Positions 3,038 to 22,687 of a stretch of DNA of 39,573 bases are shown piece after piece (the first letter of the stretch is position 1; each line of letters starts with the position of its first letter). Below the pieces are notes generated by a model. That model worked only from the letters and a program-made list of their open reading frames with translations. It searched no databases and was not told the DNA's origin. The stretch is from the IMG/VR virus record IMGVR_UViG_3300033075_000869. One strand, given 5' to 3'. Position numbers and translations under genes: made by a program. Source of the DNA: a virus.

Positions 3038-3452
3038 TCAAGTTTTCCCAAAACAAACAGATCAAATTTATCCGACATATTCTAAGATCAAGTACCAAAT
3101 TGATCAATTGGAATGTTTTCCAACGTGGGAAGAATTTCTAGAATATGAATGTGTTAGATGTTCTGGTAAATTTAATATGTTTGAACGAAACAATATTCAA
3201 CGTTATGCATATGACGTTGGCCTATATAGTCTCGTGAACTGGCTTCAACGGTGTAAAGAGCTCGGGCATTCATATACAAAAATGTATGATCCAGCATTGA
3301 AACATTATTCCAGACTTCATGGCCCACGTGAAGGGTGGATAACATCGGATCTAAAGAAAAAGTTGTTTGTTCGTGAACTTGAAGCACAACGCTCTGAACT
3401 TGAGCTAAAGCTACAAGCTATTCAAGACAAACTTGAAGAAGTTAAACCATGA
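3030..3452 (+). CDS. hypothetical protein
   Basis: ORF of 140 aa. Its stop overlaps the next start (ATGA). Confidence 0.5.
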   Translation: MTSQVFPKQTDQIYPTYSKIKYQIDQLECFPTWEEFLEYECVRCSGKFNMFERNNIQRYAYDVGLYSLVNWLQRCKELGHSYTKMYDPALKHYSRLHGPREGWITSDLKKKLFVRELEAQRSELELKLQAIQDKLEEVKP

Positions 3453-3712
3453 AATATGGTTCTTTTACGCCTCGACCTGGCGATCTATTCACATGGCATT
3501 ATAACGATAACGACAAACAGTGTGTGGCAGATTTGTGGATTATTGGCGGTTACGTTCCGTCTGTAGAGGTAAATTTGCTCATTGCCTTGACTGATCGATT
3601 TATTTGGTGGGTTCAAAATGGCAGCTTTTTGTTCAGGGTTATCGATCAGCCAGCGCAAACAAGTGCAGAACCTTATTTGAGAAAAATTCATCCACGAATT
3701 CAGGTTGTGTAA
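3449..3712 (+). CDS. family A small paralog (MKxGxFTPRPGDLFTWHY...IHPR)
   Basis: One of 5 paralogs sharing N-terminal FTP(K/R)PGDLFxWHYDxDD and C-terminal F(I/L)xxRxD...HPR. The paralogs differ at synonymous sites, which indicates purifying selection. Confidence 0.6.
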   Translation: MKYGSFTPRPGDLFTWHYNDNDKQCVADLWIIGGYVPSVEVNLLIALTDRFIWWVQNGSFLFRVIDQPAQTSAEPYLRKIHPRIQVV

Positions 3713-3743
3713 TGATGTTACGTAATGAGGTACCATTGTATCA

Positions 3744-4304
3744 ATGGACTTGGCTGAGGCACAGAATATTGGCGATAGAATCGTTGATTCATTGTTGAAT
3801 TGTACAGCTCGAGCAGTCGTTGCCGGGTCTGTTCGACGGTGTAAACCCACCGTCAAAGACATTGAAATCGTCGTTATTGTTACTGATTACGATAAGTTGT
3901 TTACGCAGCTGCGGCAACACGGTCGATTTATTAAGCCGGGTGTTCCACAAGTCATTGACTGGCCACCCAAGAAAAATTCGAAATATATTCGAATGTACCT
4001 CAATGAGGGAATTAAGCTTGATTTGTTTGTGGGCTCGAGTGATAACTGGGGAGCCCTCCTGTGTATGCGAACAGGTAGTGGCGTTGGTCCTGATGGGAAT
4101 GTTCACCATGGATTCATACCTGCGATGTTTCGCCGCTGGAAGCGAGTTTCTGGCGGTGGGAAGATGTCCGGTTGCATGCCAACCATGCCCGACGGACTTC
4201 AACTAAACGTTCCTGAAGAACGTGATTATTTTGACTTGTTGGGTGTTCAGTGGGTTGAACCAAACAAGCGAATTTCTAGCTCGGACGTGAAAGGAATCTC
4301 ATGA
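3744..4304 (+). CDS. minimal DNA polymerase X-family nucleotidyltransferase (ASFV PolX-like size)
   Basis: GSVRR...DIEIVVIV (Pol beta NT motif GS..R...D.D), LDLFV, and overall layout like 174-aa minimal PolX. Confidence 0.65.
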   Translation: MDLAEAQNIGDRIVDSLLNCTARAVVAGSVRRCKPTVKDIEIVVIVTDYDKLFTQLRQHGRFIKPGVPQVIDWPPKKNSKYIRMYLNEGIKLDLFVGSSDNWGALLCMRTGSGVGPDGNVHHGFIPAMFRRWKRVSGGGKMSGCMPTMPDGLQLNVPEERDYFDLLGVQWVEPNKRISSSDVKGIS

Positions 4305-4621
4305 AAACGATTTATTATCTTTCAGATTACAATTGGCAGCGTGGCGAAATTGTGGGTGGTGGGAAAAAGAATCATAAGATCCGTGATCATTACGGAAATG
4401 AATTTTACGTGTCGAAAGACAAATGTGCAGTTGAAGGCGAATCTGTTTGCGTTGTTTGGGAAATGTGGCGTGGTGTAAATGGTCGTGGCGGATATCGAGT
4501 TGAAAGGGTTCTTTACCCAGAACATCGTGTTCCGGCAGAAAAAGTGTATCGTCAGTCAAGTGGCGATGGTCGAGTTAATGAAAATGCAAATCCATTTAAC
4601 GGGAATGGTACTCCCAAATGA
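4301..4621 (+). CDS. hypothetical protein
   Basis: ORF of 106 aa, with ATGA overlap to the previous gene. Confidence 0.45.
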   Translation: MKTIYYLSDYNWQRGEIVGGGKKNHKIRDHYGNEFYVSKDKCAVEGESVCVVWEMWRGVNGRGGYRVERVLYPEHRVPAEKVYRQSSGDGRVNENANPFNGNGTPK

Positions 4622-4917
4622 ACTCAAAACGTGTTTGGGAGTTTGATGACGCTGTTTCTCTTATTCGTGAGATTGAACCTCATTTCCAAAACATTGGACT
4701 ACATGTTGGTTTTACAGGGTCTGTTCTACGACAAGGATTTTCGTCGAAAGACATGTCTTCTCGCGTACTTGAATTGCTAACGTCATTGGGGTGGAAACGA
4801 ATTCGAAATCGACAGGAAATGCTCCAGTGTTGGAGATCATTGTCCAATGAAGAAGTAAAGTGGGTTGAAGTTTACAGTTTCAAACATCGTCGAATTGACG
4901 TTATGTTTCTACAATAA
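4618..4917 (+). CDS. hypothetical protein
   Basis: ORF of 99 aa. Confidence 0.45.
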   Translation: MNSKRVWEFDDAVSLIREIEPHFQNIGLHVGFTGSVLRQGFSSKDMSSRVLELLTSLGWKRIRNRQEMLQCWRSLSNEEVKWVEVYSFKHRRIDVMFLQ

Positions 4918-5190
4918 ATGAAAACGGGTCCTTTTACACCAAAACCGGGTGATTTGTTCAGTTGGTATTATGACACAGATGATACGCCATGTCATAGTTA
5001 TGATCAACTATTCTCAATGTCTATGCGTCTCTGGGTACCTTGTGCAGGCGTTAATACGCTTATTTCATTGACTAATAGCAATATATTTTGGTTGAATGAT
5101 ACGCATATTTTTAATGCACGTATTGATAATACGTCACCATGGCCGAATACGAAGCAAGGTCGTTCGATTTATCCGCGAAAACTAACATGA
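4918..5190 (+). CDS. family A small paralog
   Basis: MKTGPFTPKPGDLFSWYYDTDD...IFNARID...SIYPRKLT. Confidence 0.6.
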   Translation: MKTGPFTPKPGDLFSWYYDTDDTPCHSYDQLFSMSMRLWVPCAGVNTLISLTNSNIFWLNDTHIFNARIDNTSPWPNTKQGRSIYPRKLT

Positions 5191-5579
5191 AAACAAATCC
5201 GAATAACTGGGGGTCTACAAGCGTCGTAAATTACAACTGGTTTCACACTGATGTTGATCATGCTGACATTGAAAAATATGTTCGTTCACCTGAAGAAGAT
5301 GCTGCGCTACAATTCTTGTCACGTGATATTCATTTCGTTATGAGACCATGTCTAGAGAAGTTTAAGAAGTTCTTTGGACGTCAGACATATACATGGGTTG
5401 GTTCAGATTGTAGGTTTTGGGTTTGGGAATTTGACGAACAGATTCGTGTATTTGTTAATTCCCATAAAGGTATTTGTGTTGAACTACGACATGACCTGCA
5501 ACCAAAAGCTGCATATGCAGCAATGATCAAATTTGTAAAGGAAATCAAGGAAAACCAAGAAAGTGAGCTATATGCTTGA
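5187..5579 (+). CDS. hypothetical protein
   Basis: ATG at 5187 overlaps the previous stop (ATGA). The track ORF starts at 5139. Confidence 0.45.
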   Translation: MKTNPNNWGSTSVVNYNWFHTDVDHADIEKYVRSPEEDAALQFLSRDIHFVMRPCLEKFKKFFGRQTYTWVGSDCRFWVWEFDEQIRVFVNSHKGICVELRHDLQPKAAYAAMIKFVKEIKENQESELYA

Positions 5580-5844
5580 AAAGATTGATGAAATTATTTT
5601 GCGTGCTTTTGTTCTATTTGCGCTTATTACGTGTATCGTCATTGGATACAAAATAACATTTGCAAATGGACAAATTGAGTATTGTTATGTTGTTTCGCAC
5701 GTTGATTCTGGAGGTCAAATACATGTTCTTTATGGTAGTCGAGATTGGAGACCTGATCATACCATCATGCGAGAAACAGTTTATCCGACTCGTTTGACTG
5801 AATATGCAAAGGAAATCGGATGTCCACTGAAGTTAACGATGTGA
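5563..5844 (+). CDS. small membrane protein (1 TM)
   Basis: Hydrophobic segment AFVLFALITCIVIGY. Confidence 0.4.
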   Translation: MSYMLEKIDEIILRAFVLFALITCIVIGYKITFANGQIEYCYVVSHVDSGGQIHVLYGSRDWRPDHTIMRETVYPTRLTEYAKEIGCPLKLTM

Positions 5845-6050
5845 TCGATCTGAACAATCGAGCTCAAATTATTCTTGAAGCAATTGATGAAGAAATCACT
5901 GAGTGGTTTCTAACACCGGGTAATAAGAAAATGTTGCACTTGCATCTGGGAATGTCGCCTCAAGACTATACAACGTTTCTATTTACGCCGAAAAAGTGGG
6001 CAATTGATTACGTGAAGAAGCTTCACGGAGATGAACTTAAGCAGCCTTAA
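5820..6050 (+). CDS. hypothetical protein
   Basis: ORF of 76 aa. Confidence 0.4.
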   Translation: MSTEVNDVIDLNNRAQIILEAIDEEITEWFLTPGNKKMLHLHLGMSPQDYTTFLFTPKKWAIDYVKKLHGDELKQP

Positions 6051-6300
6051 ATTCAATCCCTTTCATCACGTAAAAATCTCTGATGAGTTCGATTGCTTCA
6101 TCCCAATTGTCTTCATCAAGTGCTGCGTCCATTGCGTTGTTCAACATCTTGGGCGGAACTTTCATTTTTTCTGCTGCCCATTTTAGCAGTTTAATAAACG
6201 CTGCACGCTGATCACTTGTTTTTGGTTTTCGTAGTGGAACCGGTGCTTCTGTGAGCATTAGCAGTTCAATGTATTCACGCAACAATTGCAAACGTTTCAT
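6037..6300 (-). CDS. hypothetical small helical protein, lone minus-strand gene inside a plus block; N-term MKRLQLLREYIELL
   Basis: ATG verified at 6298-6300. It fills an otherwise empty 300-bp gap. The N-terminus resembles the shared LREY(I/V) motif. Confidence 0.4.
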   Translation of the reverse strand: MKRLQLLREYIELLMLTEAPVPLRKPKTSDQRAAFIKLLKWAAEKMKVPPKMLNNAMDAALDEDNWDEAIELIRDFYVMKGIEFKAA

Positions 6301-6350
6301 GCTATTACATATGTGTGTAAAGCAAAAATAACCTGTGTTATAGTGTTAAT

Positions 6351-7382
6351 ATGAACAAAGTCATTGAATCTTGGAAGTGGCCTTCCATTGAAAGTTTTTA
6401 CAACGTTCGTAAAACGATTCAAAAATATGGCGTCGCCGCTGGATCGATTGTTACGTATCGTGCAAAGGTGAAATTGCATGGTGCATGCGCTGCTTTTTCA
6501 ATTGATGGCGATAGTGCCCGTGGTGCTACGCTTCAAACGTATTCTCGAACAGCGATTGTTACACCCGAGAGTGATCCCATGGGATTTTCTAGGTGGATCG
6601 AAAATCGTCGTGATCAATTGTTGTCGTTGCATCAACCTGGAACGAGTATCATTGTATACGGCGAGTGGACCGGTCAAGGTATTCAAAAGGGTGTTGCTGC
6701 GAGTCAAGTCGAACGTTTCTTCGCTGTTTTCGCTGCTCGAGTGTCTCGAGTGGAAGACCCAATGAGTGAGGAATTCATTACTGATCCGGATGAACTTAGG
6801 GTCTACGTTCAGGGTGTTCCGGGTTGTTATGTGTTGCCTTGGTTCAATGACGGTGAAGAATTTGTTGTTCCATGGGAGGCAGATTCTGATTCTTTTGAGA
6901 ATGTTATTTCGAGAATGAACTCTCACGTTGCCGCAATTGAGGCATGTGATCCGTTCGTGTCGAAAACTTTTGGTGTTGCAGGTATCGGCGAAGGTCTCGT
7001 ATTTTATCCAGTGTCAGAACAACATTGTTCATTTGGCGATTTTTCTTATCTCTGCTTCAAGGCAAAGGGTGAGAAACACAAAACGATTGTTCATGCTGCA
7101 CCGGTCCAGGCTGAGCCGACAGTCATTGAAGGTCTTGATGAATTTGTTCGCAATGTGTTGCCGTTGTCTAGGCTCGAACAAGGTGTTCGGGCAACAAACG
7201 ACGGGTCTGACATTGCAATGATGGTCAATTTGGGACCGTTCTTGAAATGGATTGGTCTCGATCTAGAAAAGGAAACCGTGGAAGAGCTACGTGTCTCTGG
7301 TCTTGATCGCAAAGTGGTCTTCAAGAAGTGCAATGAATATGCTCGCAATTGGTTCATGAACGAATCGAGGAAACTGTTATGA
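6351..7382 (+). CDS. RNA ligase, Rnl2 family
   Basis: Motif I KLHG (T4 Rnl2 KIHGTN) and motif IV YGEWTGQGIQKGV (Rnl2 FGEFAGPGIQKNV). Confidence 0.75.
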   Translation: MNKVIESWKWPSIESFYNVRKTIQKYGVAAGSIVTYRAKVKLHGACAAFSIDGDSARGATLQTYSRTAIVTPESDPMGFSRWIENRRDQLLSLHQPGTSIIVYGEWTGQGIQKGVAASQVERFFAVFAARVSRVEDPMSEEFITDPDELRVYVQGVPGCYVLPWFNDGEEFVVPWEADSDSFENVISRMNSHVAAIEACDPFVSKTFGVAGIGEGLVFYPVSEQHCSFGDFSYLCFKAKGEKHKTIVHAAPVQAEPTVIEGLDEFVRNVLPLSRLEQGVRATNDGSDIAMMVNLGPFLKWIGLDLEKETVEELRVSGLDRKVVFKKCNEYARNWFMNESRKLL

Positions 7383-7443
7383 AACTTTCTACTTACAACT
7401 GAAATACAGTAGCAGAGGGATATTTCGCTTCATCCACGAAAAT

Positions 7444-7683
7444 ATGTCAATAGAACGTAAATACGAATCAATCATAGCCGACCTAACGCATCAGCTATAT
7501 CGTGCTCGACTTATTTCGCGTGGTTGGAAGAAACTAGCGAAACTTGAGCGAGCAACAATCGTCCAAGCAGCGGTTGAATCTGCTGCTGGTGATTGGGATG
7601 ATGATGGTCAAAGAGATCGCGTTATTCAACATCATCTTGAGAAGTTTTCAAGCATTAGAGAAACATTGCGAAATCCGAAATGA
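7444..7683 (+). CDS. hypothetical protein
   Basis: ORF of 79 aa. Its upstream intergenic region carries a copy of the CTTCATCCACG motif. Confidence 0.45.
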   Translation: MSIERKYESIIADLTHQLYRARLISRGWKKLAKLERATIVQAAVESAAGDWDDDGQRDRVIQHHLEKFSSIRETLRNPK

Positions 7684-7967
7684 AGACCGGTCCTTTCACC
7701 CCGAAACCTGGCGAACTATTCCAATGGCACTATGACATAGACGATAGTATATGTCAACCTGATGATAAACTGTGGGCAAAGTCTCCTTATCGTTGGATCC
7801 CGTGCGTCGACAACAGCAATTTGCTCGTTGCTCTAACCGCTACGGATATTTGGTGGGTGAATAGTCAAGGTTTTATTCATACATACGTTGATTGCTTGCA
7901 ATATCGCGGCGGGCGCGATCAAGCCGCCACAGAAAATGTCTATCATCCACGCATAGTTGAAATATGA
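7680..7967 (+). CDS. family A small paralog
   Basis: MKTGPFTPKPGELFQWHYDIDD...FIHTYVD...YHPRIVEI. Contains a GC-rich insertion-like segment (GGCGG...CCGCC) near the C-terminus. Confidence 0.6.
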   Translation: MKTGPFTPKPGELFQWHYDIDDSICQPDDKLWAKSPYRWIPCVDNSNLLVALTATDIWWVNSQGFIHTYVDCLQYRGGRDQAATENVYHPRIVEI

Positions 7968-8314
7968 AAAAAGGTCTGTATACACCACGTCCTGGAGATC
8001 TGTTCAATTGGCATTATGATCATGATGATTCAAAATGTAAAGATGACGATAAAGTTTGGTCGTCGTCTATGAAATGTTGGGTACTATGCAACGGTATTAA
8101 CATTCTAATCTCACTAACCGAAACTGATATGTGGTGGATTAATAATCAGAGCTTCATCCACGCGCGCGTGGATAAAATTCCGTCGGCCGCCTGGGTAGGC
8201 GTTCCTCGGCGCTGCTTCATCCACGCGCGCGTGGATAAAATGTTTACACCGACTAGTACTCATATCGCCGAGCCTGGCGAGCGAGCTTTGTCTACGCATA
8301 ATGAAATAACATGA
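7964..8314 (+). CDS. family A small paralog with internal 60-bp tandem duplication and aberrant C-terminus (possibly decaying)
   Basis: FIHARVDK is encoded twice by duplicated palindromic DNA. The C-terminus lacks the family's HPR motif. Confidence 0.45.
   Translation: MKKGLYTPRPGDLFNWHYDHDDSKCKDDDKVWSSSMKCWVLCNGINILISLTETDMWWINNQSFIHARVDKIPSAAWVGVPRRCFIHARVDKMFTPTSTHIAEPGERALSTHNEIT
8153..8238. repeat. Tandem direct repeat of TTCATCCACGCGCGCGTGGATAAAAT (2 copies, 34-bp GC-rich spacer), each holding a perfect 18-bp palindrome ATCCACGCGCGCGTGGAT
   Basis: Exact 26-mer at 8153-8178 and 8213-8238. The palindrome is perfect. The segment is locally GC-rich in an AT-rich genome. Confidence 0.7.
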
Positions 8315-9090
8315 CAACCAAAAATCTATTGACTCGCATGAAAGGCTATGAAGAAGCATCAAGGATGATTCTTCCTGGTCGTTCACCTGTTATTCTCCGT
8401 CTCGACGGAAAGTCGTTCTCAACGTATACTCGTTCCCTGGGAACTTTTAATCACTCATTCGCATGGTTGATGAAAGAAACAGCGGTTGCTGTGTGTAAGC
8501 ATATCCAGGGCGCAACGTTCGCTTACACCCAATCTGACGAAATATCAATTTTGATTCACTCTTATAAGAAGCTGAATTCTGAACCGTGGTTTGAAAACTG
8601 TGTTCAGAAGATGGTTTCTGTTTCGTCTTCAATTGCTGCAGTTACATTTACGTTGGGATCACCACAACTTTTTAAGGATGTGTTGGCCGAACCTCGGGCC
8701 GAGGATGCCCGCCCGGCATATTTTGATGCCCGTGTATTTGTCGTTCCAGAAAATGACGTTGTGAATTATTTCGTCTGGCGTCAACAAGATGCAACACGAA
8801 ATGCAATGTCTATGTGGGCTCGTTCACTTTTCTCAGCGAAAGAGATTCATGGGAAAAACTGGCAACAGATGCGTGAGATGTGTGAAACCCGTGGTGTTAA
8901 GTGGGACGCTCTTTCTCCTCAATTTACACGTGGAACCGGAATATCACGCGTCGATGGTCATTGGACAATCGACGATGAAACGCCACTGTTTACTACGAAC
9001 AGGGACTACATCGCTCGGCATCTCGAACTAGAAGAAGGCTTACGTGAAGCTGTATTACGGCCCACGAGATGGCCCACGTATTACCCGTGA
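8311..9090 (+). CDS. Thg1-like protein (tRNA-His guanylyltransferase family, 3'-5' nucleotidyltransferase)
   Basis: RLDGKSFSTYTR and AYTQSDEISIL motifs typical of the Thg1/TLP palm domain; about 260 aa. Confidence 0.7.
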   Translation: MTTKNLLTRMKGYEEASRMILPGRSPVILRLDGKSFSTYTRSLGTFNHSFAWLMKETAVAVCKHIQGATFAYTQSDEISILIHSYKKLNSEPWFENCVQKMVSVSSSIAAVTFTLGSPQLFKDVLAEPRAEDARPAYFDARVFVVPENDVVNYFVWRQQDATRNAMSMWARSLFSAKEIHGKNWQQMREMCETRGVKWDALSPQFTRGTGISRVDGHWTIDDETPLFTTNRDYIARHLELEEGLREAVLRPTRWPTYYP

Positions 9091-9109
9091 TTAATGATGG
9101 TGGTTATAT

Positions 9110-9133
9110 ACCAACTATCATGTTGGTGTTTTT
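9110..9133 (+). terminator. Terminator-like hairpin ACCAAC-tatcat-GTTGGT followed by GTTTTT
   Basis: 6-bp stem, 6-nt loop, T-run. Sits just after the Thg1-like stop. Confidence 0.35.
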
Positions 9134-9135
9134 GT

Positions 9136-9154
9136 GTTTACACTGTGTGTAAAC
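9136..9154. promoter_or_regulatory. Inverted repeat GTTTACAC-tgt-GTGTAAAC upstream of gene 9183
   Basis: Perfect 8-bp arms with a 3-nt spacer in the intergenic region. Candidate operator. Confidence 0.3.
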
Positions 9155-9182
9155 GTAACCCAATGAGGAATAATATAGAACT

Positions 9183-9641
9183 ATGAATGAGAAAAATTTG
9201 ATTAATTTGGTTATTGGTGACTGGAGTGGCGATGGGCATTGCCAAACTGAAACGATTCAGGTCGAATCATCATTGAATAAAAATGAGTTGCAAGTTGCTT
9301 ATGAAGCTGCCGCAAAGAAGACAAAAGTTCGCCTTGTTGAGGCTGTTGTGTCAGACTATGAAGACAATATGATTTCAGAGACAGATTTCAAAAAGTTGCA
9401 AAAGGCCGGCATTGTTATGGATGAAATCTTCTTCAAAGACGAAGAGGGGAATTGGGATTATTCACTTGATGCAACAAGTTTTGCTATGTTGTATCTAGAA
9501 ATGATCAAGATTGTCAATCCGGCATTTAAATATGCATTCCCAGACGTTCCTACGATTCGGATTGGTGGATATGGATTGTTCCCGTTATGTTTAAATATAA
9601 ATTTGTTCGATCAATTTTGTCCGGACGAGCGATGGGTCTGA
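9183..9641 (+). CDS. hypothetical protein
   Basis: ORF of 152 aa. Confidence 0.5.
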   Translation: MNEKNLINLVIGDWSGDGHCQTETIQVESSLNKNELQVAYEAAAKKTKVRLVEAVVSDYEDNMISETDFKKLQKAGIVMDEIFFKDEEGNWDYSLDATSFAMLYLEMIKIVNPAFKYAFPDVPTIRIGGYGLFPLCLNINLFDQFCPDERWV

Positions 9642-9808
9642 TTTTTCTATGGTTCGTGACAATCGTGGTAATTGATATTATTGCGTTTCAAAATGAACCG
9701 TGGTCATTGATTGCAGCTTTTATTTGCGACGTTGTCGTTTTGTTCATGTGGTTTTATCATCCCGAAGAGAAAAAATTACATTATGAATCGTCATGTTCTA
9801 ATCATTGA
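9587..9808 (+). CDS. small 2-TM membrane protein
   Basis: Two hydrophobic helices (LIFLWFVTIVVIDIIAF and LIAAFICDVVVLFMWF). Confidence 0.35.
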   Translation: MFKYKFVRSILSGRAMGLIFLWFVTIVVIDIIAFQNEPWSLIAAFICDVVVLFMWFYHPEEKKLHYESSCSNH

Positions 9809-10661
9809 TGGTATGAATTTCTTGCATCGGGCTCGTAGTGGATTTGCTATGGGCCCTGCACCTGTTGTATACAATTTCATGCGAAACTTCCGTGCAATTG
9901 TTGAACAGTTCGCGCCTGATTACATTTATTTCGTTCTTGAGGGTCATCCTCAGCAACGAATTGATGCCCTTCCACAATACAAAGCGAATCGGCAGGTTGA
10001 AGCAGACAGTGCAGCACATGAAGAACAGAAGAAGTTTTTCAAGCAAGTTGATCATATCATCGAACTTCTTGGTGTATCGTTTCCTGTTAGAGTTGTTCGT
10101 CATCCTGAACTAGAGTGTGATGATGTAATTTATGACCTGGTAAGTGATCCGACCTGGATTATTGACGACAGTTATCCAGATCCATATGAACTAAAGTATA
10201 CTGTCGTATCTAACGATTCAGATTTTACGCAATTGCTTTGCGAGTTTGACAATGTTTCTGTGTATAATCCTATGTTGAAGAAATATGTTGAGAAGCCGGA
10301 TTACGATTACGTAACGTGGAAAGCTCTACGTGGTGACGGGTCTGACAACATCCCTGGAATCCCTGGTATTGGTGACGTGACTGCAACGAAAGCGATGGAT
10401 GATCCTGAATTGTTGCGAGAAATTCTGTCTCGTAATGGTGCTGCAGAGATTTTTCAACGTAATGTAAATCTGATCAAATTTATCACGATCAAAGACACTG
10501 AAAAAGGCAAGGTTGAACACCTGGGTGTAATGTGGAATACCCACAAAAGTTGGGAACCACTACGACAAGCGTTTGAAAAATATGGATTTCAGTCGCTACT
10601 GAAGCCTGAAGCTTGGCAGAAATATATTGGAACGTTTCATCATCAATTGCACGTTGCGTAA
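9783..10661 (+). CDS. 5'-3' exonuclease / flap endonuclease (T5 exo / T4 RNase H type)
   Basis: N-terminal LIIDGMNFLHRA (compare LLVDGNNLAYR) and acidic clusters. ATG 9783 verified; the track ORF starts at 9711. Confidence 0.7.
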   Translation: MNRHVLIIDGMNFLHRARSGFAMGPAPVVYNFMRNFRAIVEQFAPDYIYFVLEGHPQQRIDALPQYKANRQVEADSAAHEEQKKFFKQVDHIIELLGVSFPVRVVRHPELECDDVIYDLVSDPTWIIDDSYPDPYELKYTVVSNDSDFTQLLCEFDNVSVYNPMLKKYVEKPDYDYVTWKALRGDGSDNIPGIPGIGDVTATKAMDDPELLREILSRNGAAEIFQRNVNLIKFITIKDTEKGKVEHLGVMWNTHKSWEPLRQAFEKYGFQSLLKPEAWQKYIGTFHHQLHVA

Positions 10662-10667
10662 TCGATT

Positions 10668-10922
10668 ATGAAAACCGGTCTATTTACTCCGCGACCGGGA
10701 GATTTGTTCACTTGGCATCATGATTCAGACGATGGTTTGTGTCGTCGTGGTGAAAAGATTTGGTCTTCATCTAAGAATGATTGGGTGTCATGTGTTGGCA
10801 TCAATATTCTAATCTCACTAACTGAAACTGATGTGTGGTGGATTGATAAAATTAATCTTATTCACTCGCGATATGGTGAAATTGATATCAATCATCTTCA
10901 TCCACGTACGAATAAAACTTGA
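10668..10922 (+). CDS. family A small paralog
   Basis: MKTGLFTPRPGDLFTWHHDSDD...LIHSRYGEID...HLHPRTNKT. Confidence 0.6.
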   Translation: MKTGLFTPRPGDLFTWHHDSDDGLCRRGEKIWSSSKNDWVSCVGINILISLTETDVWWIDKINLIHSRYGEIDINHLHPRTNKT

Positions 10923-21025: not shown

Positions 21026-22687
21026 ATGTTTAATGACATTGACGTTCCCAATACAACAAAAGTACTATTTCATAATGAAGCTAGAAGAAAATTGTATGTT
21101 GGACTTTGTGTTGCTGCTGAAGCAGTTACATGTACACTTGGACCACGTGGTCGAACAGTGCTAATTCAAAGCAAGGGCGGTCCACCAACTGTGACCAAGG
21201 ACGGTGTTACAGTTATTAAGTCAATTAGGCTCAAAGATCCTATTGAAAAAATGGGTGCTGAACTAATACGAGAAGCAGCGTCACAAACCAATGAAGTGGC
21301 TGGTGATGGGACTACAACGGCTACGGTTCTGACCCACTCGATGGTCAAGGAAGGCCTCAAACTATTGGAAGCTGGGTATTCTGCCAAGGAGTTGTGCGAG
21401 GGTATTCAATGGGCTCGAGAGTTGGTTGATAACGAACTAAAGAAATCTGCACGTGTTTTGAACACTTCAGCTGAAATTGCTCAGGTAGGAACTATCAGTG
21501 CGAACGGTGATACGAAAATTGGTGAATTGATCGCTGAAGCAATGGAAAAAGTTGGCCGTGACGGTATCATTACCGTTGAAGACGCAAAAGGAATGGCAAC
21601 GACCCTTGAAGTTGTAGAAGGTATGCAATTTGAACGTGGGTATATGAGCCCATATTTTGTAACCAATCCAGAACGAATGAATGTTTCATATCAAGAAGCA
21701 CTAGTTCTTGTAACTGACAAGAAACTATCTGGATTGCGAGAGCTAGTTCCAGTTCTAGAAAAGGTTGCAGGTTCGCGTAAACCGTTGCTCATTATTGCAG
21801 ATGACGTTGAAGGTGAAGCACTTCAGGGTTTGGTCATCAACCGTGTTAACGGTAATCTACCGCTAGTTGCCGTGAAAGCACCGGGATATGGTAAACATCG
21901 TGACGAGTTGCTAGCCGATATTTGTACATTGACAGGTGCTAAACTAGTTTCGTCTTCAACTGGCGTTAAGTTTGATACGTTGACACTAGCTGATTTGGGT
22001 GTTGTAAAACGCCTGGTTGTTGATGCGAAGTCAACAACCCTTGTGGGCTCAGGTGCAACCAAATCGAAAATTGATGAACATGTTGCAAATTTGCGCACTC
22101 AACTAGAAGATGTTACTATTTCCACAGAAGAAGTTGTGAAGCTAAAGACGAGAATCGCGAAGCTGGCGTCGGGTGTTGCGGTCATTCGTGTCGGCGGTGC
22201 AACAGAAGTTGAAATGATTGAGCGTAAATACCGTATTGAAGACGCACTAAATGCAACACGAGCAGCCGCAGAAGAAGGCATTGTAAAGGGCGGTGGAATG
22301 GCACTTGTTGATGCGTATCATAGTCTTGCGTCAACCCTTGCTGGTCTTTCATCTAATACAACTGTGCTAGCAGGTGCAAATATTGTTATGGCGGCTTGTC
22401 TTGCACCACTTAGCAAGATTGCGGCAAATGCCGGGAAGACGCCTGAAGTCATTCTAGAACGTGTTGATTCTGGACGCTTCCTATCTGATATTCAATACCG
22501 CGGTTGGGATGCTTCGTCTGGAAAAGACGTGGATATGTTCCAGGCAGGGATTATCGATCCTGTTAAGGTTACACGTACAGCTCTTAAAAATGCTGCATCT
22601 GTTGCAATTACGTTTCTAACACTTGATGCAGTTGTAGTTGAAGAACAATCGTCTAACAAAGAAGATAATCTTGAAAAACACGCCTGA
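21026..22687 (+). CDS. groEL: chaperonin GroEL
   Basis: Full-length collinear match to GroEL: [45 protein letters not shown] and others. Confidence 0.95.

Follow-up and report, generated by a model that had tools for sequence, protein, structure and literature searches.

A 28-nucleotide palindromic repeat and its spacer arrays at the ends of a phage gene family

Viral clustered regularly interspaced short palindromic repeat (CRISPR) mini-arrays contain one or two spacers and no cas genes. Those known are non-coding, carry repeats identical to host CRISPR repeats and mostly target related viruses (PMC11656645). Solitary repeat units and Racrs (PMC10651486), as well as viral Cracrs (bioRxiv 10.1101/2024.10.29.618823), are phage-borne mimics of CRISPR repeats that also lack cas genes and sometimes form arrays of two or three units. 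Racrs are intergenic, and SRUFinder is limited to intergenic regions, intragenic matches being regarded as probable false positives (PMC10651486). Cracr spacers match host sequences, and the spacer-like segments of type I-E Cracrs measure 21–24 nucleotides (nt) (bioRxiv 10.1101/2024.10.29.618823). The Cas-less hypervariable interspersed repeat arrays of Altae-Tran et al. (2023; PMC10910872) comprise six systems, which were described as expressed and non-coding and which are associated with other proteins, among them an AddB-like nuclease and GGDEF. None of these mini-arrays, solitary units, Cracrs or Cas-less arrays has been described as embedded in a coding gene and translated with it. Here we analyse a 39,573-nt stretch of viral DNA (IMG/VR record IMGVR_UViG_3300033075_000869; hereafter the window) in which the genes of one family, family A, end throughout in a repeat-spacer-repeat cassette. 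Arrays in the window and in its relatives (syntenic contigs, labelled L001 and so on) contain two to four repeats, unique 32–36-nt spacers rich in guanine and cytosine (GC) and a degenerate last repeat.

Family A arrays resemble CRISPR arrays in having direct repeats within the ~23–47-nt range and unique spacers of similar length, but they have no non-coding leader. Spacers between two full repeats are 32–36 nt long, and 21/24 intervals of the wider clade measure exactly 33 nt. With viral mini-arrays (PMC11656645) they share two to four repeats in a phage genome, no cas genes found nearby, palindromic repeats of ~28 nt, spacers of ~33 nt, a degenerate last repeat and spacer content that differs between close relatives. 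Unlike mini-arrays, they start in a conserved coding gene, are translated and are many per genome, each tied to a paralogue. Spacers of a mini-array would be expected to match related viruses or other mobile elements; no such match was found for family A spacers in phage, plasmid and IMG/VR collections, themselves limited, or in related loci.

Whereas a Racr is a single, intergenic, CRISPR-like repeat downstream of a promoter, the units described here are intragenic and arrayed. The sole intergenic copy (7427–7443) is a half-repeat in a gene relic, without a promoter-like site. A host origin of spacers, as in Cracrs, would fit the high GC content of family A spacers, although at 32–36 nt these are longer than the segments of type I-E Cracrs. 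The Cas-less arrays of PMC10910872 are similar in their regular repeats, hypervariable spacers and lack of cas genes, but none was reported to be embedded in and translated with a phage gene. A literature search for peptide strings of the family returned no paper containing them. There is a substantial chance that the mechanism behind the cassettes is new.

A palindromic repeat read in several frames

We identified five family A paralogues in the window, starting at 3449, 4918, 7680, 7964 and 10668. As the original prediction had stated, these are real open reading frames (ORFs); they share MKTGxFTPxPGDLFxWHYDxDD and are 37–45% identical to one another. That prediction also drew attention to a 10-mer in their 3′ ends, TTCATCCACG. 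Five exact copies (3687, 7429, 8153, 8216 and 10897), all on the + strand, compare with 0.16 ± 0.39 (maximum 2) in dinucleotide-preserving shuffles, and the reported recurrence is real. TTCATCCACG is the top-ranking 10-mer of the window and CTTCATCCACG the top-ranking 11-mer, and GCTTCATCCACG is the sole 12-mer with three copies. The five matches amount to four independent ones, because gene 7964 holds its two copies within a 28-nt direct repeat whose units are identical and start 63 nt apart.

A 28-nt palindromic repeat with the consensus GCTTCATCCACG-NNNN-CGTGGAT(G/A)A, whose 28-mer forms include GCTTCATCCACGCGCGCGTGGATGAAAT and GGTTGTTCCACGCGCGCGTGGATGACGC, has TTCATCCACG as its 5′ arm. F-I-H and H-P-R, the two peptide motifs of the family, are two readings of this one DNA sequence and not independent protein motifs. 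The proposed 10-mer site is thus conserved as DNA, but it is not free-standing, being half of a 28-nt repeat in arrays with a 61–64-nt period.

The window contains one intact array (8151–8312), four decayed cassettes and one deletion relic (7379–7443), all on the + strand. The intact array lies in the 116-aa family A gene at 7964..8314 and consists of two 28-nt repeats plus a degenerate third. Repeat 1 (8151..8178; GCTTCATCCACGCGCGCGTGGATAAAAT), read S-F-I-H-A-R-V-D-K, includes a perfect palindrome of 18 bp, ATCCACGCGCGCGTGGAT. Spacer 1 (8179..8213) is 35 nt long and has a GC content of 74% in a window of 40%; no second copy was found anywhere searched. Repeat 2 (8214..8241) is 28/28 identical to repeat 1 and, through the 63-nt period, stays in frame as F-I-H-A-R-V-D-K. 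Gene 7964 thus reads the 10-mer as F-I-H (TTC-ATC-CAC-G) two times, as originally described. Shifted by one frame, the 28-mer GCTTCATCCACGCGCGCGTGGATAAAAT would give L-H-P-R-A-R-G-stop, the usual C-terminus of the family. Spacer 2 (8242..8284; 43 nt, 56% GC) is nearer the window's own composition, and the degenerate terminal repeat (8285..8312; GCTTTGTCTACGCATAATGAAATAACAT) matches 10/13 of the first 13 repeat bases.

A minus-strand ORF of 90 aa (8114–8386) overlaps this array and contains FIHARVDE twice, the palindrome reading I-H-A-R-V-D on both strands; it is probably not a gene. Folded as RNA, positions 8130–8320 (+) can pair the repeats in an 18-bp stem that encloses the spacer (minimum free energy −75.1 kcal/mol, z = −4.3). 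A match of the same segment to the ZMP/ZTP riboswitch (E = 0.11) is far under the gathering score and represents noise.

Related contigs show the same organisation. L005 carries three exact 28-nt copies of GCTTCATCCACGCACGCGTGGATGATAC followed by a degenerate fourth, with periods of 61, 63 and 61 nt; its first repeat reads FIHARVDD, its second LHPRTRG-stop, and its third lies past the stop codon. L140, L158, L161, L164, L167 and L001 likewise carry arrays, of two to four repeats each, and a metagenome scan for the repeat yielded one further relative. Repeats are identical or nearly so inside one array (28/28 in the window, L005, L158, L175 and L177–L179) and differ between arrays. The repeat centre may be CGCG, TGCA, CACG or CTCG, while the arms remain complementary. 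Across 16 repeat variants, 89% of palindrome pairs are kept, and a centre changed from CGCG to TGCA is still symmetric. Within the window clade, spacers between full repeats measure 33, 35 or 36 nt, which corresponds to periods of 61, 63 and 64 nt. C-termini of homologues read LHPRARG, LHPRSRG or LHPRTRG, and many homologues contain FIHARVD(D/E) one, two or three times.

A profile search identified 199 representatives of a wider superfamily, and a second search 145 further proteins, many of them encoded on contigs 77–361 kb long with several paralogues each. A typical member has the form MKPGDLIEWVYK...KGLFHARVDD-[12 variable residues]-VVPRARG-stop, in which GG TTG TTC CAC GCG CGC GTG GAT GA gives GLFHARVDD and G GTT GTT CCA CGC GCG CGT GGA TGA gives VVPRARG-stop. 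Because the 61-nt period is of the form 3n+1, the reading frame shifts by one at the following repeat, which gives (V/L)(V/H)PRxRG and has a stop codon within it. The distance from His to Pro is 20 residues in 48/60 superfamily proteins, equivalent to the 61-nt period. Three superfamily proteins use the third frame (STRAWM). In L175 and four IMG/VR contigs we identified ~20 arrays of 28-nt repeats (for example GGTGCTTCCACGCGCGCGTGGATGACGC) and 33-nt spacers, with a period of 61 nt in 21/24 intervals and of 60 nt in 3/24.

Codon usage separates the repeat from the rest of the gene. Across 26 family A genes, invariant N-terminal residues use three or four codons each. Synonymous sites there are saturated while amino acids are kept, so the family A protein is under selection. 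H-P-R is written with CAT in 14/14 cases (background 0.67) and with CCA in 13/14 (background 0.37). F-I-H is TTC ATC CAC in most genes, contrary to phage codon preference. A 10-mer no commoner than codon usage of a conserved H-P-R predicts would have counted against the prediction; the codon choice is far more uniform than usage predicts. One sequence is read in two frames in the window and in three in the wider family, is kept past stop codons and survives in a dead relic, which bears out conservation at the DNA level.

AlphaFold predicts the family A protein confidently as a small all-beta barrel (predicted local distance difference test score 89.2), with the FIH and HPR strands both in the fold. 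The five- to seven-stranded small barrel of SH3/Tudor-like proteins agrees with this model. The prediction supports a small SH3/Tudor-like beta-barrel in large uncultured phages, and with it the SH3-like fold suggested earlier. The suggested likeness to NlpC/P60-LRAT proteins does not survive: these are papain-like alpha+beta proteins with a catalytic Cys-His pair, the predicted fold is all-beta, and no Pfam or PDB sequence match to family A was found. A structural search among viral proteins gave no significant relative.

The four decayed cassettes retain the repeat in part. The 87-aa gene at 3449..3712 has a repeat-1 equivalent at 3623–3650 (SFLFRVID) and, 61 nt on, a terminal half-repeat at 3685–3712 with the exact 10-mer at 3687–3696, read I-H-P-R. 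The 90-aa gene at 4918..5190 has the same 61-nt spacing between its repeat-1 equivalent (5104–5131; HIFNARID) and its terminal half-repeat (5165–5190), where TTTATCCGCG (8/10; 5168–5177) reads I-Y-P-R. In the 95-aa gene at 7680..7967, repeat 1 (7869–7896) has decayed synonymously, TTT ATT CAT still giving F-I-H, and the terminal half-repeat (7940–7967) contains ATCATCCACG (9/10), read Y-H-P-R. The 84-aa gene at 10668..10922 combines a decayed repeat 1 (10854–10881; NLIHSRYG) with a terminal half-repeat (10894–10922) that carries the exact 10-mer at 10897–10906, read L-H-P-R; its tail ACGAATAAAACTT is kept in L001 and L002. Of the four H-P-R copies first reported, those in genes 3449 and 10668 are exact (A-TT-CAT-CCA-CG, read I/L-H-P-R); that in gene 7680 is a 9/10 match, and that in gene 4918 an 8/10 match read Y-P-R.

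The non-coding copy reported upstream of gene 7444 is present (CGCTTCATCCACGAAAAT, 5 nt before the ATG), but the site is the relic of a family A gene. This deleted gene (7379..7443, +) retains ATGAAA and, after an internal deletion, its last ~50 nt including GCTTCATCCACGAAAAT at 7427–7443. The gene is intact in L001 (9556–9771). The 15-mer TTCATCCACGAAAAT is conserved 15/15, whereas adjoining relic DNA is ~50% identical. Absence of the intergenic copy from relatives would have counted against the prediction; it is found in L001, L002 and L004.

Spacer turnover and composition

Repeat-spacer units are gained, lost or replaced among close relatives. The strongest case is that of L177, L178 and L179, from three metagenomes, which are ~99% identical over ~440 nt and in which the 32-nt segment between perfect repeats is entirely different in each. 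All three share the following spacer and end in a degenerate repeat, with 61-nt periods throughout. In L158, L140 and L167, orthologous arrays similarly have in common a diverged distal spacer and a degenerate last repeat, with three unrelated proximal spacers. L158_13266 and L170 are 100% identical over ~375 nt save for a precise 61-nt indel, comprising one repeat and one spacer. In both groups (L177/L178/L179 and L158/L140/L167/L170) polymorphism lies at one end of the array and conservation at the other, a pattern that, with one ancestral repeat only, does not prove polarity.

Larger rearrangements also occur at the repeats. In L002_12517, repeat 1 is fused with the terminal repeat, a collapse of the array. 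At one locus, L001 (12516–12797) and L002 (12517–12744) carry family A alleles of only ~65% identity, with 98% identity in the upstream flank and 90% in the other. A whole-gene cassette seems to have been replaced here, with the start codon and the terminal half-repeat as its limits. In L175, one spacer is common to two neighbouring paralogues, and recombination between paralogues thus also occurs.

Spacers are mutually no more alike than shuffled sequences, and apart from the L175 case no other copy of any spacer was found in the related loci examined. Those between two full repeats have a GC content of 52–85% in phages of 40–50%, and array spacers of the window clade have 60–76%. Resident spacers in decayed paralogues match the phage in composition. 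The first spacer base is G in 12/17 spacers of the wider clade. Spacer GC shows a three-base periodicity in two independent sets (p = 0.003 and p = 0.009), with mixed phases that are not locked to the gene frame; one periodic spacer is GGC AGC GAC GAG AAC ACG AAG GGC CGC TTC TTC. Stop codons are depleted in the frame of the upstream repeat (1/29 spacers; 7/29 and 10/29 for the remaining frames), also for units behind a stop, indicating that spacers are or were translated. By composition and periodicity, spacers resemble pieces of protein-coding sequence from a GC-rich genome, and not non-templated filler or diverged duplicates. Their source may be a high-GC host or its mobile elements.

Three other origins were considered and rejected. 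Non-templated filler from a terminal-transferase-like activity of the PolX-like protein encoded at 3744–4304 is ruled out by the narrow spacer length and the codon-like periodicity. Tandem duplication followed by divergence is ruled out since repeats are identical yet adjoining spacers are unrelated. Rickettsia palindromic elements are translated in-frame palindromes, copies of one 100–150-bp sequence in many unrelated genes. In contrast, family A inserts are unique and confined to one gene family, and their uniqueness rules out insertion of such elements or of miniature inverted-repeat transposable elements.

Explanations for the cassettes

In the reading that we consider best, and to which we give an even chance, a Cas1-Cas2-type integrase inserts captured DNA and the 28-nt repeat is duplicated in the process. 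The cassette would gain units as a CRISPR array does, each consisting of a unique 32–36-nt piece of foreign DNA and a duplicated 28-nt repeat. The first repeat is read (G)(L)F(I)HARVDD; translation of the spacer, mostly 33 nt long, gives a hypervariable loop of 12 residues. A new downstream repeat rebuilds the C-terminal strand and the stop, a frame logic by which the protein withstands a 61-nt insertion and acquires a new loop. Older units stay untranslated past the stop and decay. The last repeat retains its 5′ half only, as the half-site TTCATCCACG(AAAAT) of four window genes and the relic (7427–7443).

A 28-nt duplication flanking a 33-nt insert is the product of CRISPR Cas1-Cas2 integrases. 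We infer a Cas1-Cas2-type enzyme, most likely the host's, from the 28-nt duplication, the 33-nt insert and the 61-nt period, the last of which the type I-E array of Escherichia coli shares. In strain K-12, the CRISPR-I array (L173) has a period of 61–62 nt and degenerate distal repeats. Family A arrays further resemble it in a 4-nt loop on a GC-rich stem, a tail of GGAT(A/G)A and a repeat-spacer junction that is mostly G. That spacer capture of the CRISPR-adaptation type writes foreign DNA into a phage gene, with a 33-nt spacer as the 12-residue loop and the frame-shifted repeat as the last beta strand and stop, is a tentative proposition, and on balance we lean against its full form. It would amount to a generator of diversity in phage proteins that works by repeats and spacers and extends over hundreds of genes. 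The benefit may lie in a CRISPR-related RNA, either decoy or guide, in a more diverse protein loop, or in both.

Several observations weigh against Cas1-Cas2-type insertion. First, searches of the window and of sampled flanks of relatives turned up no cas, reverse-transcriptase or integrase gene. Second, a scan of 185,579 species genomes gave, among the matches listed, no multi-copy array and only single chance palindromes in GC-rich genomes, and a profile search with a synthetic three-frame profile for spurious ORFs over such an array found nothing. Rfam likewise returned nothing at the gathering score and no CRISPR-DR match even at E ≤ 10, only noise. Third, the repeat matches the E. coli type I-E repeat at 19–20/28 positions (p about 0.003), but its reverse complement does nearly as well, and the similarity is mostly that of two GC-rich palindromes. 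Fourth, there is no non-coding leader, the array beginning within a gene that is subject to purifying selection, and the periods of the window clade (61, 63 and 64 nt) are looser than the strict type I-E ruler. No protospacer was found in the phage and plasmid collections, IMG/VR or related loci; two plasmid matches (E = 0.04 and E = 0.5) are at chance level. Finally, in L161 the 5′-most repeats are the most decayed, the reverse of an array whose leader-proximal unit is newest, and the spacer common to two L175 paralogues points to exchange within the genome.

Cassette shuffling without an integrase is a rather unlikely alternative, but one with several observations on its side. The 28-nt repeats would serve as patches of homology around a hypervariable loop segment, and homologous recombination or gene conversion, among paralogues as well as with co-infecting relatives, would swap spacers; arrays would be built and units deleted when repeat 1 crosses over unequally with the terminal repeat, much as in antigenic-variation cassettes with short direct repeats. 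Many paralogues per genome, often in tandem, would provide the substrates, and the spacer common to adjacent L175 paralogues, the collapse in L002_12517 and the ~65% identical L001/L002 alleles between near-identical flanks are all of the expected kind. Unit deletion accounts equally well for the difference between L158 and L170. Spacers open in the frame of the upstream repeat are also expected if each began as a translated resident loop, and a 61-nt period could be inherited from the resident cassette without any molecular ruler. However, except for the one adjacent pair, no array spacer matches the spacers of other paralogues or sequence at other loci. Array spacers of the window clade are 60–76% GC, while resident spacers are phage-like, and spacer periodicity is not locked to the frame expected of former resident loops. 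Three unrelated proximal spacers in ~99% identical contigs would need three donors, with no other trace of exchange. Shuffling also leaves the origin of new spacer sequences unexplained.

Like the family A cassettes, diversity-generating retroelements and repeat-flanked antigenic-variation cassettes produce targeted C-terminal hypervariability of phage or bacterial proteins near a DNA hairpin or short direct repeats. Unlike in the retroelements, whole segments are replaced here instead of adenine-specific substitutions being introduced. Retroelements also rely on a reverse transcriptase and on a template repeat almost identical to the variable region; the window ORFs scanned include no reverse transcriptase, and no second copy of a spacer was found in the window or related loci.

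It is improbable that the arrays are by-products of a protein- or RNA-level signal, such as a site bound by a monomeric or dimeric protein (an operator, a DnaA-box-like site or iterons in a coding region) or an mRNA hairpin that affects stability or the next gene's translation. Iterons within a coding region have a precedent in the lambda origin, located in gene O, and the half-site presumably resembles a DnaA box (TTATCCACA versus TT(C/T)ATCCACG). A signal would explain why the linear half-site is kept where a hairpin is impossible, often 5–20 nt before the next start codon, why palindrome pairs are so well preserved with a symmetric centre, and why the window array folds so stably. But a binding site does not account for unique 33-nt inserts, exact 28-nt duplications and turnover. 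Distances to the next gene range from 5 to 158 nt, covariation is weak, G-U and C-A changes show no strand preference, and the sites are confined to this gene family and always in one orientation. The original prediction had suggested a recombination, termination or regulatory site. The repeats are indeed spots of DNA rearrangement, but promoter and terminator functions were rejected, as no site from sigma-70 promoter and intrinsic-terminator scans coincides with the motif. Chi-like and RNase III sites were considered and set aside, the variants lacking the needed sequence or stem length.

Purely protein-level conservation, in which FIHARVD and HPR are barrel strands and the shared DNA is the fossil of an old frameshifted duplication kept identical by recent ancestry, is very improbable and in our judgement already refuted: AlphaFold does place both segments in beta strands, gene 7680 keeps F-I-H and L158_13266 keeps FIHARVDD through synonymous changes (in the latter breaking the palindrome), and H-A-R-V in GC-rich codons (CAC GCG CGC GTG) is automatically palindromic, but repeats lie past stop codons and use all three frames, motif synonymous sites are near invariant in an otherwise saturated gene, in dozens of distantly related homologues the final A-R-G-stop follows the palindrome's right arm, the 15-mer is kept in a dead relic, and repeats are 28/28 identical within an array beside unrelated spacers.

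Neighbouring genes and implications

Gene content of the window is phage-like and includes an RNA ligase (6351–7382, +), a Thg1-like tRNA-His guanylyltransferase (8311–9090, +), a GroEL (21026–22687, +; 48% identical to bacterial GroEL), a 5′-3′ exonuclease, UvdE, two NUDIX genes, an ADP-ribosylglycohydrolase, and papain-like and trypsin-like peptidases. No tRNA genes were found in the window. A comparison of GroEL, Thg1 and a structural protein with isolated phages, made to identify the host, revealed no close relative.

Directly after the first family A gene lies a gene for a 186-aa minimal PolX-like nucleotidyltransferase (3744–4304, +) with a GSVRRC...DIEIVV motif and a weak DNA_pol_B_thumb match; it has the same position in L001 and L164. 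An 868-aa ORF (32914–35520, −) contains Major Vault Protein domains (MVP_shoulder, 1.5e-30; Vault repeats; SPFH/Band 7) and has a homologue in the distant relative L174 (13397–16039). A vault-like protein is unusual in large phages. A GIY-YIG homing-endonuclease gene lies 5′ of the RNA ligase in L001 (7556–8242), L002 and L004 and is absent from the window (~6040–6350). The RNA ligase ORF of L001 continues into the family A gene that the window has lost. In L175 (5800–18800) and L158 (4171–9104), a DnaE-type polymerase gene is split into several parts by inteins, GIY-YIG and HNH genes, TnpB (Cas12f1-like_TNB) and an IS200/IS605 Y1 transposase; array-bearing family members sit between the pieces of the polymerase gene.

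Pipelines that search viral genomes for CRISPR repeats in intergenic regions only discard this class of array by design, and coding-masked searches would miss it. With more than 200 family members on contigs of up to 361 kb, and with natural near-identical variants that differ by one spacer, the family is a testable system. If no Cas protein is involved, an unknown mechanism inserts ~33 nt with a 28-nt duplication. If a Cas1-Cas2-type integrase is responsible, CRISPR adaptation would also act on phage genomes and its product would be translated; protein hypervariability would then have a new source in addition to gene conversion and diversity-generating retroelements.

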